This document shows positions 4,315 through 9,993 of a stretch of DNA of 64,000 nucleotides, one piece after another. Both the position numbers and the translations under genes were made by a program. A model generated the notes under the pieces. The model did not search any database. It saw nothing but the letters and a program-made list of their open reading frames with translations, and was not told where the DNA came from. This DNA is from an uncultured delta proteobacterium. Lineage in GTDB: Bacteria; Myxococcota; Myxococcia; SLRQ01. Each line of letters starts with the position of its first letter. Position 1 is the stretch's first letter. The stretch is from the NCBI GenBank assembly GCA_963727485.1, contig CAVSGM010000011.1:128001-192000 (forward strand). The letters are read 5' to 3'.

Positions 4315-4938
<624 letters not shown>

Positions 4939-4964
4939 GGCCCACCTATAGCCCGGGCGCGGGC

Positions 4965-4998
4965 AAAAAAAAGCCCCGCAAGCCGAAGCTTGCGGGGC
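4965..4998 (-). terminator. Rho-independent terminator, ncRNA copy 1
   Basis: Minus strand GCCCCGCAAGC-UUCG-GCUUGCGGGGC followed by U8. Confidence 0.9.
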
Positions 4999-5334
4999 CT
5001 GGGGGACCTGGCCAGGCCGGGGGAGTACCGACCAGATCCACATCGGAGAGGGACCCCACGGTTGCCCGTGGGGCTCGTCCACGCCTCGACCGGGGGGGGA
5101 ACGAGGCGGACGAAAAGGTGGCGCAGCCTGGAGAGAAGGGCGACCCGGGCCGGGTGCCGGGGGGAGGTTCACCGGCCCGGGTCATCCCAAAGACGCTGAC
5201 TCGGCCGGTCGTGCTTGGACCGACGCGAATCCGTACGACCTGGGAAGAGCCGGCACGCACCGCTGTGCGTGCGAAGGGGGGGACCGACGTGCCGGATACC
5301 CAGGTAACTGCGCCATTTCGTATTCGGTTTTCGC
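4965..5334 (-). ncRNA. Putative ~370-nt structured sRNA with C-rich loops (copy 1; Pxr-like character)
   Basis: Lies between a sigma-54-like promoter and a terminator; nested helices (UGGCGCAG/CUGCGCCA, CCGGCACG/CGUGCCGG, GACCCGGGCCGG/CCGGCCCGGGUC); five UCCCCC motifs; close paralog at 5634-6006. 5' end inferred from promoter spacing. Confidence 0.75.
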
Positions 5335-5344
5335 AAGGAGAGAA

Positions 5345-5361
5345 TACAAGCGCGGTGCCAA
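5345..5361 (-). promoter_or_regulatory. Sigma-54 (-24/-12)-like promoter, copy 1
   Basis: TTGGCACCGCGCTTGTA versus consensus TGGCACG-N4-TTGC; spacing correct, -12 element TTGT; conserved in copy 2. Confidence 0.7.
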
Positions 5362-5633
5362 CTCGAGCCTCCGCCCGGCAGCGCGCCAATGGCCAGTCTT
5401 TTCAGGGCCTTGCGGCCCAGGCCGGGAGATGCCCCGGGGGCGGATCCGAATGCAGATCTGCAGTCTGGCCACGGATCCGTTGCGAGGCGGAAAAGCCATC
5501 GTCATTCCAGGTGCTTGCGTCGAATTCCGGCGCTCCGCTCCCGCTGGAATCGTTCCAGTATGGCAAAAAACCGAGCCTTGACGCGGACTTGGGGATGGCT
5601 TGCACCGCTGAAAGTTCCCGGGCGGGCGCGGAC

Positions 5634-5667
5634 AAAAAAAAGCCCCGCAAGCCGAAGCTTGCGGGGC
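5634..5667 (-). terminator. Rho-independent terminator, ncRNA copy 2
   Basis: Same hairpin and U8 tract as copy 1. Confidence 0.9.
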
Positions 5668-6006
5668 CTGGGGGACCTGGCCAGGCCGGGGGAGTACCGA
5701 CCAAGTCCACACCATCGAGGCGCCCCACAGTGACCCGTGGGGCTCGTCCGCTCCTCGACCGGGGGGGAGACCGAGGGGGACGAATGGGGGGCGCAGCGTG
5801 AGAAAGGAGGGAGACCCGGACCGGGTGCCGGGGGGAGGTTCACCGGTCCGGGTCATCCCAGGTACAGCGGCTCGGCCGGTCGTACTTGGACCGACGCGAA
5901 ACCGTAATGCCTGGGAAAATCCGGCACGCACCGCTGTTGATGTGCGAGGGGGGGACCGGCGTGCCGGGAACCCAGACAACTGCGCCATTTCGTATTCGGT
6001 TTTCGC
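5634..6006 (-). ncRNA. Putative ~370-nt structured sRNA with C-rich loops (copy 2)
   Basis: Paralog of copy 1 offset by about 670 bp; helices retained, including a G-C to A-U compensatory change. Confidence 0.75.
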
Positions 6007-6016
6007 GAGGAGAGAA

Positions 6017-6033
6017 TACAAGGGCGATGCCAA
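6017..6033 (-). promoter_or_regulatory. Sigma-54 (-24/-12)-like promoter, copy 2
   Basis: TTGGCATCGCCCTTGTA. Confidence 0.7.
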
Positions 6034-6340
6034 CTTGGGTCGGCCCGGAAGCAAGACCCCAATATCCAATTCTTTCAGGCGCTTGTGGTCGTGTCCGGAG
6101 GATGCCCCAGGGGCTGATCTGGATGCACATGTGCAGTCTGGCCCCGAGAGGTTTTCCAATACGAAAAAACGTAGTTATCAAGGGGCATTGAGTGTCATTC
6201 AGCGATTCCACTCCCAGCGGAATTGCTGCAGTGTGGCGAAAAACCCTGTCCTGATGCGTCTCTGGTGGGCCCTTGCACCCATGCAAGGTCCCTTCAGATC
6301 TGCAAGGCTTCCCGGGGCCCGTGGGGGCCCGCCCGCTGCC

Positions 6341-6961
6341 TCAGGCGCCGGCCCGCTCGTAGACCAGCCGGTAGACCGGCGTCCCCGTGGCCAGGTACCG
6401 CCGCTCCCGGTTCGAGGGGACCCCCAGGCCGTCGTCGGCGGTGAAGGTCCCGGGCCCCGACCGGTTCTCGAAGGGGGCCGCCCCGTCCTCGAAGGCCTCA
6501 ATCATGGCCCGGGCGTAGTCGAGGATGTCCGTGCGCAGGTAGACCCGGCCTCCGGGCCGGAGGAGCACGCCCATCATCCGCACCATCGGTGGGTCCACCA
6601 GCCGCCGCTTGTGGTGGCGCTTCTTCCACCAGGGGTCCGGGAACTGCACGTGGAAGGCGTCCACCGACCCCGGGGTGAAGAGGGTGGGCAGCAGGCGCCT
6701 CGCGTCCCCGCGCATGGCCAACACGTTCCCCAGCGCCCGGCGCTCGGCCTTCCGCACCGCCCCGGCGGCGAGCTTCGCCCGGAACTCCAGGCCCACCAGG
6801 TCGACCTCGGGGTGGGCGGCGGCGTAGTCCAGGAGGAAGTGGCCGTAGCCGAAGCCAATCTCCACCTGGAGGGGGGCGACCCGGCCGAAGCGCGCGGCCC
6901 AGTCCTCCCGGAGGTCGACGGCCAGGGGGCCGGTGGCGAAGGGGTCGTGGCGCTGGGGCAT
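6341..6961 (-). CDS. trmB: tRNA (guanine-N7)-methyltransferase
   Basis: VEIGFGYG SAM motif, FPDPWWKKRHHKRRL, LRTD. Confidence 0.93.
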   Translation of the reverse strand: MPQRHDPFATGPLAVDLREDWAARFGRVAPLQVEIGFGYGHFLLDYAAAHPEVDLVGLEFRAKLAAGAVRKAERRALGNVLAMRGDARRLLPTLFTPGSVDAFHVQFPDPWWKKRHHKRRLVDPPMVRMMGVLLRPGGRVYLRTDILDYARAMIEAFEDGAAPFENRSGPGTFTADDGLGVPSNRERRYLATGTPVYRLVYERAGA

Positions 6962-7203: not shown

Positions 7204-7995
7204 ATGTGGCAGAGAATGAAGCGCGTCGTCCGCTCCTTCGCCAACTTCTTCATCTCGGTGGCCGAGGACCCGGAGCTCATCCTGGAGCAGAACATCCGGG
7301 ACATGAACGACGAGGTCCCCAAGATGAACGAGTCCATCGCCATGGTCCGGGCGAACGTGACCCTCCTGGAGAAGGAGCAGGCGCGCTACCAGACCGAGAT
7401 CAACGAGACCACCAGCAAGGTCAAGGCGGCGATCAAGGCCGACCGGGACGATCTCGCCGCCAGCTACGCCATCAACCTCGAGCACAACCAGAAGGCCCTG
7501 GCCCGGAGCCAGGGCCAGCTCGAGGCCGCCAAGAGCGCCTACGAGAAGGCGCTCCAGCTCAAGCGGGCGTTCATGCGCGAGAAGGAGCGCAAGACCCGCG
7601 ACGCCCTCGAGGCCATCCGCGCCCACAAGCGGGCCCAGTGGCAGGCCAAGGTCGCCAGCACCCTCGAGTCCTTCGAGATCGGCGGCCTCGACCAGGGCCA
7701 CGACGACATGATCCGCCGCATCGAGGAGAAGACGGCGGTGAACGAGGCCCGGATGGAGATGGCCCTCGACGGCCTCGACCGGGACCGGCTCCAGATCGAG
7801 GAGGACGCCGAGCGGATCCGCGCCGAGGAGGTGGTCCGCCAGCTCAAGCTGGAGATGGGCGACGACGGCACCGACGCCAGCCACCAGCTCGGCAGCGGCG
7901 AGGCCACGCGCCTCGCCAGCGTCAAGGCCGCCGACGAGGCGGCCGAGGACACCGAGGCGGCGGTTCCCGCCGAGCCCAAGGCCGAGGCCAAGTGA
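7204..7995 (+). CDS. PspA/IM30 family protein
   Basis: N-terminal amphipathic helix, AEDPELILEQNIRDM, long coiled coil, IRRIEEK..NEAR. Confidence 0.9.
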   Translation: MWQRMKRVVRSFANFFISVAEDPELILEQNIRDMNDEVPKMNESIAMVRANVTLLEKEQARYQTEINETTSKVKAAIKADRDDLAASYAINLEHNQKALARSQGQLEAAKSAYEKALQLKRAFMREKERKTRDALEAIRAHKRAQWQAKVASTLESFEIGGLDQGHDDMIRRIEEKTAVNEARMEMALDGLDRDRLQIEEDAERIRAEEVVRQLKLEMGDDGTDASHQLGSGEATRLASVKAADEAAEDTEAAVPAEPKAEAK

Positions 7996-8053
7996 TCCAC
8001 GGGAGGCGCGGGGTGGCCGTCGCCAGCGCGCGGCGCCCCCACGCGGCACACCG

Positions 8054-9091
8054 ATGACAGCACGCAAGGTCAGGCTGGGTCCCGGCGGCAAGGTCCTCAT
8101 GGTCCTCCTCGGGGTGGGCGTCATCCTCTGGGGCCTCGACGCGTACGGGTACCTCGACGGGGTCCGCAAGGCCCTCGGGTGGGAGCGGGGCCAGGCGGCG
8201 ACCGTGGTCCGCCGGGCGGTGACGCGCCCGGCCGCCCGGCCCCCCGAGGCCACCGCCCCCGCCTCCGACCCCGGTGCGACCCGTGCCGCCCCGCGCGCCG
8301 CCGCGACCGCCCCCGCCGCCGCGTCGCCCCCCGCCGACGACGCCTCGGCCCCGCTCCCGGCGCTCCCCGGGGCCACCCCCGCCGCCCTGAAGGACGGGGG
8401 CGACGCCCTCTGGGCGTCCACCGGCGGTCCGGCGCCCCAGTCCGAGCTCACCGCCCTGGTCCAGGGGCGCCTCGACCTGGCGCCCGTGGCCCTCCCGGAC
8501 CTGCTGCTCTTCGAGGACGCCGACAAGCTGGTCGTCGTCGGCGCGGTGCCGCCCCGGTCGCGGTACCTCTGCGCCGAGGCCGCCGACCCGGTGCAGGCGG
8601 TCCTCGGCGGCGCCTCCATCCACTTCGACCGGATCTCCGACGAGCTCCGGCTCGGCCTCCTCTTCGCCGCCCACGGGAAGGATCCCGCCGAGGCGGTCTC
8701 GGGCCAGGGGACGCCAGCGTTCACCAGCGCCACCCGGTCCCAGGGGGACGGCGACCACTGCGCGGACCTGGCGGCCCTCGGCGTCGACGGGCCCCGGGTG
8801 GTGGTGGCCCGGGCCACCGCGGTCCGCCTCCAGGGGCGCGCCTACCTCGCCGCGGTGAAGGCCCGGGGCGCCCTGACCCCGGCGGTGCGGGCCTGGCTCG
8901 GCGCCGACGCCCGCGACCCCTACGGCTACGCCCACCGGGCGGCGGCCCTCGCCCGGATCCACGCGACCCTCCAGTCCACGGTGGCGCCGGCGGTGCCGGC
9001 GGTGGCCCGGGACCTCCTCGCCGCCGACGCCCGGGGGGTGCTCCGGCTCTTCGCGCCCGCGAAGGCCGCGGCCCCGGGAGGCGCGCCGTGA
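8054..9091 (+). CDS. Membrane-anchored hypothetical protein (possibly degenerate solute-binding fold)
   Basis: N-terminal TM helix, Ala/Pro linker; co-oriented with pspA; stop overlaps the next start. Confidence 0.6.
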   Translation: MTARKVRLGPGGKVLMVLLGVGVILWGLDAYGYLDGVRKALGWERGQAATVVRRAVTRPAARPPEATAPASDPGATRAAPRAAATAPAAASPPADDASAPLPALPGATPAALKDGGDALWASTGGPAPQSELTALVQGRLDLAPVALPDLLLFEDADKLVVVGAVPPRSRYLCAEAADPVQAVLGGASIHFDRISDELRLGLLFAAHGKDPAEAVSGQGTPAFTSATRSQGDGDHCADLAALGVDGPRVVVARATAVRLQGRAYLAAVKARGALTPAVRAWLGADARDPYGYAHRAAALARIHATLQSTVAPAVPAVARDLLAADARGVLRLFAPAKAAAPGGAP

Positions 9092-9993
9092 GCGAGGAGC
9101 AGCCCACCGGCGACCGCCGGGACGAGGCCCTGGTCCCCGTGGAACAGGGCGGCGGCGCCCTGGCCCCACGGGAGAACGGCGGCCCCCCCGCCCGGCGCGC
9201 CCGGGTGAACTACACCAAGGAGGCGTTCCTCTCCCGGTTCAACCTGGCGCTGGTCGCCGGGGCCGTGGGCCTCTCGCTGGTGACCCTCTCGCCGCTCCCG
9301 CTGATCCTCGCCGCCGGGGGCGAGCTGGTCTACCTGGGCACCATCCCGGGGATGCGCCGCTACCAGCGCCTGGTCGACTCGCGCTTCCACGCCCTGCGCC
9401 GCCTCGAGGGCCGGCGCGCCGAGGCGCAGATCTATCGGCGCCTCTCGCCGAACCAGCAGACCACCGTCGACGCCCTCCGGGGCCTCCGGGACAAGGTCCA
9501 CGAGAACTACCAGCGCCTCGGGGGCGGGCGCGTGGTGACCGACGCCTCGCTGGGCAAGCTCGACCAGCTCCTGGTGAGCTTCGTCCGCCTCCTCGACCAG
9601 CTCAACGCCTACCGTCGCTACCTCGGCGCCACCGACCAGGGGCGCATCCAGCGCGAGCTGGCCACCTTGGAGACCGAGCTCTCCGTGGAGAAGCGCGAGC
9701 GCCTCGCCGACATCAAGCGCCGGCGCCTCGACATCCTCCACCGGCGCCTCGATCGCTTCGAGCGCGGAGAGGAGAACCGCGAGATCATCGCCCACCAGCT
9801 CGCGGCCATCGAGGACCTGATGCGGCTGATCCACGAGCAGTCCCTGACCCTGCGCGACCCCCAGGACATCTCCCGGCAGCTCGAGGCCCTGACCTCCGAG
9901 GTCGAGGAGACCGAGGGGACGGTGCGCGAGATGGAGAGCTTCCTCCAGCTCCAGGACGAGCTGGAGCGGACCCTGGCCGGCGAGAGCCCGTGA
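9088..9993 (+). CDS. Membrane-anchored coiled-coil hypothetical protein
   Basis: GTG overlaps upstream stop; two TM segments then a charged heptad-rich region; GC3-biased codons. Confidence 0.75.
   Translation: MSEEQPTGDRRDEALVPVEQGGGALAPRENGGPPARRARVNYTKEAFLSRFNLALVAGAVGLSLVTLSPLPLILAAGGELVYLGTIPGMRRYQRLVDSRFHALRRLEGRRAEAQIYRRLSPNQQTTVDALRGLRDKVHENYQRLGGGRVVTDASLGKLDQLLVSFVRLLDQLNAYRRYLGATDQGRIQRELATLETELSVEKRERLADIKRRRLDILHRRLDRFERGEENREIIAHQLAAIEDLMRLIHEQSLTLRDPQDISRQLEALTSEVEETEGTVREMESFLQLQDELERTLAGESP

Follow-up and report, generated by a model that had tools for sequence, protein, structure and literature searches.

Two tandem structured RNA genes with sigma-54-type promoters behind trmB: a possible counterpart of Pxr in a bacterial family where Pxr is not found

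The window analysed here is a stretch of 64,000 nucleotides from an uncultured delta proteobacterium (Myxococcota; contig CAVSGM010000011.1). A 1.4-kb gap in it, between trmB and a cobalamin adenosyltransferase gene, contains two units of about 670 bp, each with one predicted RNA gene on the minus strand. The features of the genes and the RNAs are as follows (positions in the window; copy B equivalents in brackets).

4564-4938, minus strand: 5' part of the cobalamin adenosyltransferase gene (PF01923), whose frame is broken near 4560; it follows the RNA in 3 of 6 loci
4954-6291, no strand: tandem duplication with units at about 4954-5622 and 5623-6291; single copy in five other loci
4965-5334, minus strand: RNA copy A, 370 nt from the predicted start, set 12 nt past the -12 element, through U8
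4965-5000, minus strand: intrinsic terminator of copy A (5634-5669), a C(UUCG)G hairpin with U8
5004-5039, minus strand: helix P8 with C-loop 4 at 5019-5023 (5673-5708), the best conserved module
5092-5099, minus strand: C-loop 3 (5761-5767), in a hairpin that is absent in relative G001
5142-5183, minus strand: helix P5 with C-loop 2 at 5159-5164 (5813-5854, loop 5830-5835); loop unpaired probability 0.97
5200-5229, minus strand: helix P4 (5871-5900), with a conserved bulge and without a C-loop
5276-5282, minus strand: C-loop 1 (5948-5954), unpaired probability 0.75 in copy A and 0.74 in copy B
5321-5329, minus strand: 5' motif AACHGAAUA (5993-6001), mostly unpaired and kept in 7 of 7 copies
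5634-6006, minus strand: RNA copy B, 373 nt, fold z-score -8.0, 86% identical to copy A
6341-6961, minus strand: trmB (TIGR00091 above cut-off), which precedes the RNA in all six loci

The first-pass annotation had described two diverged units of this size, and their identity of 79% across 673 nt bears this out. Identity differs by part, at 93% in the promoter core, 86% in the RNA body and 62% in the upstream spacer; judged from these values, constraint tracks the predicted function of each part. Among 113 consensus base pairs, two are altered on both sides between copies A and B, eight on one side and none is broken, and the compensatory G-C to A-U change reported earlier is real. A genome-wide search of the source genome (G000) found no third copy. 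Next to the locus, window positions 7204-9993 hold a PspA/IM30-family gene followed by two unnamed genes.

Both RNAs fold more stably than dinucleotide-shuffled sequences (60 shuffles each; z-score -6.3 for copy A). The five G runs given by the first-pass annotation for the plus strand are all present in copy A (5001-5005, 5019-5023, 5092-5099, 5159-5164 and 5276-5282) and all have counterparts in copy B (5670-5674, 5688-5692, 5761-5767, 5830-5835 and 5948-5954), which carries two further G runs. Its count of five UC motifs needs a correction: all five tracts exist and four of them form apical loops, with a mean unpaired probability of 0.74-0.98 in the two copies; the fifth is half-paired (0.50 and 0.23) and missing from 2 of 5 homologues. 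It is thus not a conserved loop, and the motif count should be four. The terminators were located in both units as described; across all seven known copies the terminator pairs have a probability of 0.98-1.0, and the best fold without the terminator costs 9-16 kcal/mol. A reading of the units as terminators only was rejected. The 5' motif lies 5-11 nt from the RNA start in six copies and 54 nt from it in relative G002, and because this distance varies the motif likely acts as RNA.

None of the six reading frames of copies A and B scores as coding (-0.39 to -0.61 per codon; the 1st percentile of called genes is +0.10), and we rejected a small-protein reading of the units. Frame breaks do occur in ordinary genes of this assembly: in a tryptophanyl-tRNA synthetase-like gene (window about 985-2040), in the adenosyltransferase gene (window 4400-4938) and in pxrR (G000:C1:43100-43300). 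Their presence in three such genes suggests indel errors of the assembly, and for this reason the exact lengths of the C runs may be off.

Homologues were sought from several sides. The window's genome and four relatives, each in another genus, represent family f1, and a comparison of trmB regions took in 30 loci of 41 genomes. One RNA copy lies directly after trmB in all four other f1 genomes, and none was seen after trmB in the 25 loci from other families. A pattern scan of metagenomes gave 17 loci, one of which (L073) is a true homologue, also after trmB; the other 16 were rejected as lacking promoter, loops and terminator. In species genomes the same kind of scan gave nine loci, three of them carrying RNAs identical to copies already in the set and six being chance matches; viral contigs gave no match to the long RNA. 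The seven copies are 297-419 nt long with 7-8 helices and fold z-scores of -6.3 to -8.3. All share AACHGAAUA, helix P4, helices P5 and P8 with their C-loops, and the terminator, and the loops read U-C4-9 throughout.

In alignments of these copies three helices, P4, P5 and P8, covary. Pairs changed on both sides number 5 of 11 in P4, 4 of 10 in P5 and 2 of 12 in P8 (which has four one-sided changes as well); combined, two-sided changes affect 7 of 23 pairs in P4 with P8 and 9 of 21 in P4 with P5, with 96% of cells paired. The covariation score was reached by none of 500 shuffles and slid controls scored far lower; these counts come from MAFFT alignments that had not been adjusted to the structure, from seven related sequences and with shuffles that ignore kinship. 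A model of the long RNA detected it in 5 of 5 f1 genomes and in none of 146 other genomes of the class. Models of P4 with P5 and of P8 gave nothing beyond f1 in those 146 and 150 genomes of the phylum, except for one chance match in G047: across the phylum the P8 model matched 3 of 151 genomes, and the G047 match was rejected as lying inside a coding gene. No family of Rfam 15 matches the region, and the homologous loci likewise have no match to sX13 or 6C. The earlier proposal of an uncatalogued multi-loop sRNA family therefore holds, given its presence throughout the family, the covariation, the lack of an ORF and the lack of an Rfam match; the checks named with it, against Pxr, 6C and cuckoo models and for a conserved ORF, leave it in place.

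Upstream of each RNA lie the following predicted control elements.

5346-5360, minus strand: sigma-54-type promoter of copy A, TGGCAC-N5-TTGT
5450-5493, no strand: proximal degenerate box pair of copy A, matrix rank 4 genome-wide
5600-5613, no strand: distal box of copy A, an exact match whose outer partner lies beyond the duplicated unit
6018-6032, minus strand: sigma-54-type promoter of copy B, TGGCAT-N5-TTGT
6123-6166, no strand: proximal degenerate box pair of copy B, matrix rank 3 genome-wide
6273-6305, no strand: distal predicted PxrR boxes of copy B (6273-6286 exact, 6292-6305 with one mismatch; 19-bp period), the top pair in the genome

The sigma-54-type motifs named by the first-pass annotation are present (5360-5346 and 6032-6018 in reading direction); the motif recurs in 7 of 7 copies, and the genome has an rpoN gene. 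The usual -12 element of sigma-54 promoters reads TGC, whereas five of the seven copies have TGT. As regards IHF, comparison with its consensus gave an exact site in one of seven copies and two mismatches in the others, and we do not claim one.

The boxes form a palindrome, TTKCA-N4-TGMAA, with at least one exact match upstream of 7 of 7 copies. They are usually paired and lie about 245-280 bp before the promoter; another site is found closer in, between about -105 and -145. Pxr loci of family f2, which appears Myxococcus-like from its Pxr and gene order, have a pair of the same palindrome about 19 bp apart at about -90/-110 in 11 of 14 loci; the three loci without boxes are in genomes without a PxrR match at E<=1e-105. 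The 5.55 Mb of the window's genome contain only two exact matches, one per RNA copy, and the share of exact matches that belongs to the RNA is 2 of 2 in G000, 2 of 2 in G002, 1 of 2 in G003, 1 of 5 in G004 and 2 of 7 in G001. A matrix built from 38 boxes of other families places the RNA sites at ranks 1, 3 and 4 in G000, a test that is only partly independent because the box consensus was set after both groups of sites were known. The site at rank 2 is a promoter next to the gene of a paralogous activator (G000:C1:782387-783637), whose helix-turn-helix resembles that of PxrR (56% over 50 aa); in the region G000:C1:782387-784320 the activator gene and this AT-rich promoter, which has similar boxes, point away from each other.

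PxrK/PxrR are needed for Pxr synthesis, and an enhancer region is mentioned (PMC10217877; PMC5684412); the portions of the PxrK/PxrR literature available to us define no PxrR binding site. The PxrR clade (support 100/98) holds one of the 30 activators of G000. Its gene lies downstream of a kinase gene and tail-to-tail with nuoN, as in Pxr locus L008; towards the end of the gene there are two frame shifts that offset each other, which probably stem from the assembly. All five f1 genomes have a PxrR orthologue with the SHTTLWR(K/R)MR helix, and in none of the five are boxes, a promoter or an RNA found after pxrR. A search with the Pxr model RF01812 gave no match in the five f1 genomes versus 22 of 23 in f2; a model of the first Pxr hairpin, built from 19 non-f1 hairpins, matched 113 of 146 other genomes of the class (17 of which had helped to build it) versus none of the five. 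None of our conclusions depends on G196, an unpublished genome in this survey. The long RNA thus fills the gap that the hairpin model leaves in f1. Because of the shared boxes, the pxrR gene without an RNA and this complementary distribution, the long RNA is the likely PxrK/PxrR output of f1, which extends the comparison with Pxr made in the first-pass annotation.

Short C-loop RNAs lie behind similar boxes in other families. In f3, apparently Anaeromyxobacter-like, 7 of 8 pxrR loci (L083, L085, L086 and L090-L093) have an 80-nt one-loop RNA with Pxr's first loop, the box pair and a sigma-54 promoter, and with a small receiver-like gene downstream; the RF01812 search misses this RNA. Family f4 has two-loop RNAs behind boxes, in tandem in G009 (L084:1315-1821), and both one-loop and two-loop RNAs occur in f6, which the PxrR tree places as the sister of f1. 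Box pairs precede one- or two-loop Pxr-like RNAs at L084 (G009), L132 (G187), L129 (G180), L097 (G025) and L094 (G006); in G025 and G006 the RNA lies away from pxrR, in G025 on a different contig. Models of the long RNA match the two-loop RNAs of f4 and f6 only weakly, at E 0.001-0.08, rough values on hand-picked loci that we do not take as proof of homology to Pxr. At f3 loci L100-L103 and on the opposite strand of L094, a conserved ORF some 50 codons long lies behind another box pair with a sigma-54 promoter and is possibly a second PxrR target. The Pxr copies of genus g16 (L027, L028) have neither boxes nor a strong PxrR match and carry TTGTCA...TATCT upstream, so they may have switched to a sigma-70-type promoter. 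Arrays of 4-7 Pxr-like hairpins with a period of about 325 bp occur at G204:C1:1698206-1700201, G218:C1:1721319-1722663, G212:C37 and G172:C1.

We propose that sigma-54 polymerase would transcribe each unit as a stand-alone regulatory RNA gene of about 370 nt; that the PxrK/PxrR two-component system would bind the upstream boxes and activate this transcription; and that the four exposed C-rich loops would pair with G-run ribosome-binding sites and repress translation, Hfq not being needed. The long RNA would then be the f1 counterpart of Pxr: it would respond to the same input but carry four loops where Pxr has one, its gene having left the site beside pxrR for one behind trmB and, in the window's genome, having been duplicated. 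Taken as one chain, this is somewhat likelier to hold than to fail. Its links differ in strength: the long RNA is very probably transcribed, PxrR, for which the boxes are predicted sites, probably activates it, and pairing with mRNAs is fairly likely.

The 16S rRNA ends in the usual CCUCC, and U-C5-8 loops therefore suit G-run ribosome-binding sites better than GGAGG; predicted loop pairing gives -13 to -14 kcal/mol for the former versus -7 to -10 for the latter. We surveyed 4074 genes of our own calling in G000, with starts picked without ribosome-binding-site information. GGGGG is most frequent between -16 and -9, where two bins together hold 173 counts compared with about 40 in each bin further upstream, and the peak of GGGGGA is sharper still (68 versus about 7 per bin); 232 of the 4074 called genes (5.7%) have G5 at this position. 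Since such G-runs may be mere wobble ribosome-binding sites, the survey demonstrates the existence of targets but not their use. Among the 232, signalling genes show no enrichment (13 of them; OR 1.2, p 0.52), and thus no particular set of targets emerges. None of the five f1 genomes gave a match to Hfq. Published work on Pxr bears on pairing from both sides: a C-to-A change in its loop abolishes function (PMC5568312) and contacts near SD sequences are stated in the figure legend of a preprint (10.1101/2025.09.11.675593), whereas a target site is reported as predicted via SL3 and not the C-loop (PMC11928866), which we count against pairing. Besides P8, the elements best conserved in sequence are the 5' motif and P4, both without a C-loop, and pairing with ribosome-binding sites leaves their conservation unexplained.

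This conservation would be better accounted for if the long RNA were a PxrR-driven multivalent decoy or scaffold that titrates a multi-site protein by way of its four C-loops, P4 and the 5' motif, since neither P4 nor AACHGAAUA has an obvious mRNA partner. Rho, a hexameric terminator that favours C-rich RNA, is one candidate binder and KH-domain proteins are others. Four equivalent loops per molecule and the gene duplication suit titration, as does the lack of enrichment among target classes. However, RNAs with one or two loops behind the same boxes in other families show that valency is not required, the known multi-C-loop sRNAs sX13 and 6C work by pairing, and G5 runs are enriched precisely at the ribosome-binding site; we consider a decoy unlikely. 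Compatible with the input and targets of the pairing proposal is a precursor that is cut into single-hairpin sRNAs, the modules being active. Pxr is processed in two steps (PMC10217877) and the RpoN-dependent NrsZ is cut into three modules (PMC4253122); in addition, a whole hairpin is absent in G001 and pyrimidine-rich linkers separate the modules. Such a precursor is nevertheless quite improbable for an RNA whose modules are not copies of each other and in which, unlike in a simple hairpin array, a long closing helix encloses loops 1 and 2 and P4 in most individual folds.

Input from a sigma-54 activator other than PxrR, with the box likeness generic to the activator class, would fit the paralogue described above, with its similar helix-turn-helix and adjacent boxes, and the different promoter-to-box distances (about -105/-135 and -255/-275 versus -90/-110 for pxr). 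Yet all five f1 genomes have the PxrR orthologue, G000 and G002 contain no other exact box, and boxes and PxrR are missing together in three genomes, which makes this input very doubtful. A 5' leader or riboswitch (e.g. cobalamin) of the adenosyltransferase gene is nearly excluded. That gene does begin 26-60 nt past the terminator in 3 of 6 loci, but another gene is downstream in the other three and no gene follows copy B; no cobalamin family scores at E<=10 in the Rfam search, and no fold within 9 kcal/mol removes the terminator.

More tentatively, and with somewhat less than even confidence in the three statements jointly, Pxr may be no recent one-off but one form of a class-wide, PxrK/PxrR-driven system of C-loop RNAs with evolving valency; the series could run from one loop (Pxr and the 80-nt mini-forms) through two (f4, f6) to four on a 370-nt scaffold; and the long form might be a multivalent riboregulator of several mRNAs, or of mRNA and protein via P4 and the 5' motif, that could replace Pxr. 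The tandem duplication in G000 gives eight loop sites per locus. Pxr gates fruiting-body development, according to published descriptions arose recently within one suborder, and acts by a mechanism that was long unresolved. With a four-loop RNA under apparently the same regulator, in a lineage where no Pxr is found, two questions can be put to the test: whether the C-loop by itself does the work, and what PxrK/PxrR did before development. The locus also supplies a concrete candidate PxrR binding site and a rare example of a long sigma-54-type sRNA with several equal seeds. A search of the literature, largely of titles and abstracts, found no description of this RNA of about 370 nt; the same scope applies to what we state on the range and targets of Pxr.

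Among known RNAs, Pxr (RF01812) is the closest in its sigma-54 promoter, upstream boxes, PxrK/PxrR in the genome, apical U-C5-8 loop and lack of Hfq, and also in its tandem paralogues, which have separate promoters (PMC5568312). As the first-pass annotation had noted, the long RNA is longer and in another gene context: 370 nt with four loops (297-419 nt among the seven copies) versus about 108 nt with one, 7-8 helices versus 2-3 stem-loops, and after trmB versus between pxrR and nuoN. Its loops are closed by C-G type pairs, those of Pxr by GG...RCC, and it has extra helices and the 5' motif. The RF01812 model has no match at E<=10 in the region; a model of the Pxr SL1 hairpin, which reads stem-GG-U-C7-R-CC-stem, raises no long-RNA loop above background (best E 2.5 on the right strand), the C-run being shared; and the conserved SL3 segment is not seen in the alignment of long RNAs. 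With these membership tests negative, the long RNA would work like Pxr by input and loop type, yet by sequence and model it is not a member of the Pxr family.

sX13 of Xanthomonas (RF02232) resembles it in having several apical C-rich loops and in being Hfq-independent, and G-rich motifs are reported at about 5% of ribosome-binding sites there (PMC3771888), versus the 5.7% given above. At 115 nt and with three loops, sX13 belongs to an unrelated lineage, and its model reaches 25-26 bits where 50 is the cut-off, on the 3' 100 nt of the RNA only. We know of no PxrR-type control for sX13. The 6C RNA of Actinobacteria (RF01066; PMC6486639) is similar in that C-rich loops pair with mRNAs, chaperone-free and in a high-GC genome; it differs as a short two-hairpin RNA, and its model reaches 27.5 bits against a cut-off of 47, again on the 3' 100 nt only. 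Cuckoo/CcsR RNAs share 2-4 hairpins with a repeated pyrimidine loop (PMC4615179) but are alphaproteobacterial, have the loop CCUCCUCCC, a true anti-SD, and not UC5-8, and gave no match in the Rfam search. NrsZ of Pseudomonas is like the long RNA in its RpoN and two-component control and modular build, and unlike it in its loop motif ACAGGCAG, its three near-identical modules and its activation of the target (PMC4253122). Multi-C-loop sRNAs are thus already known; what is new here is the length, the valency and the apparent replacement of Pxr.
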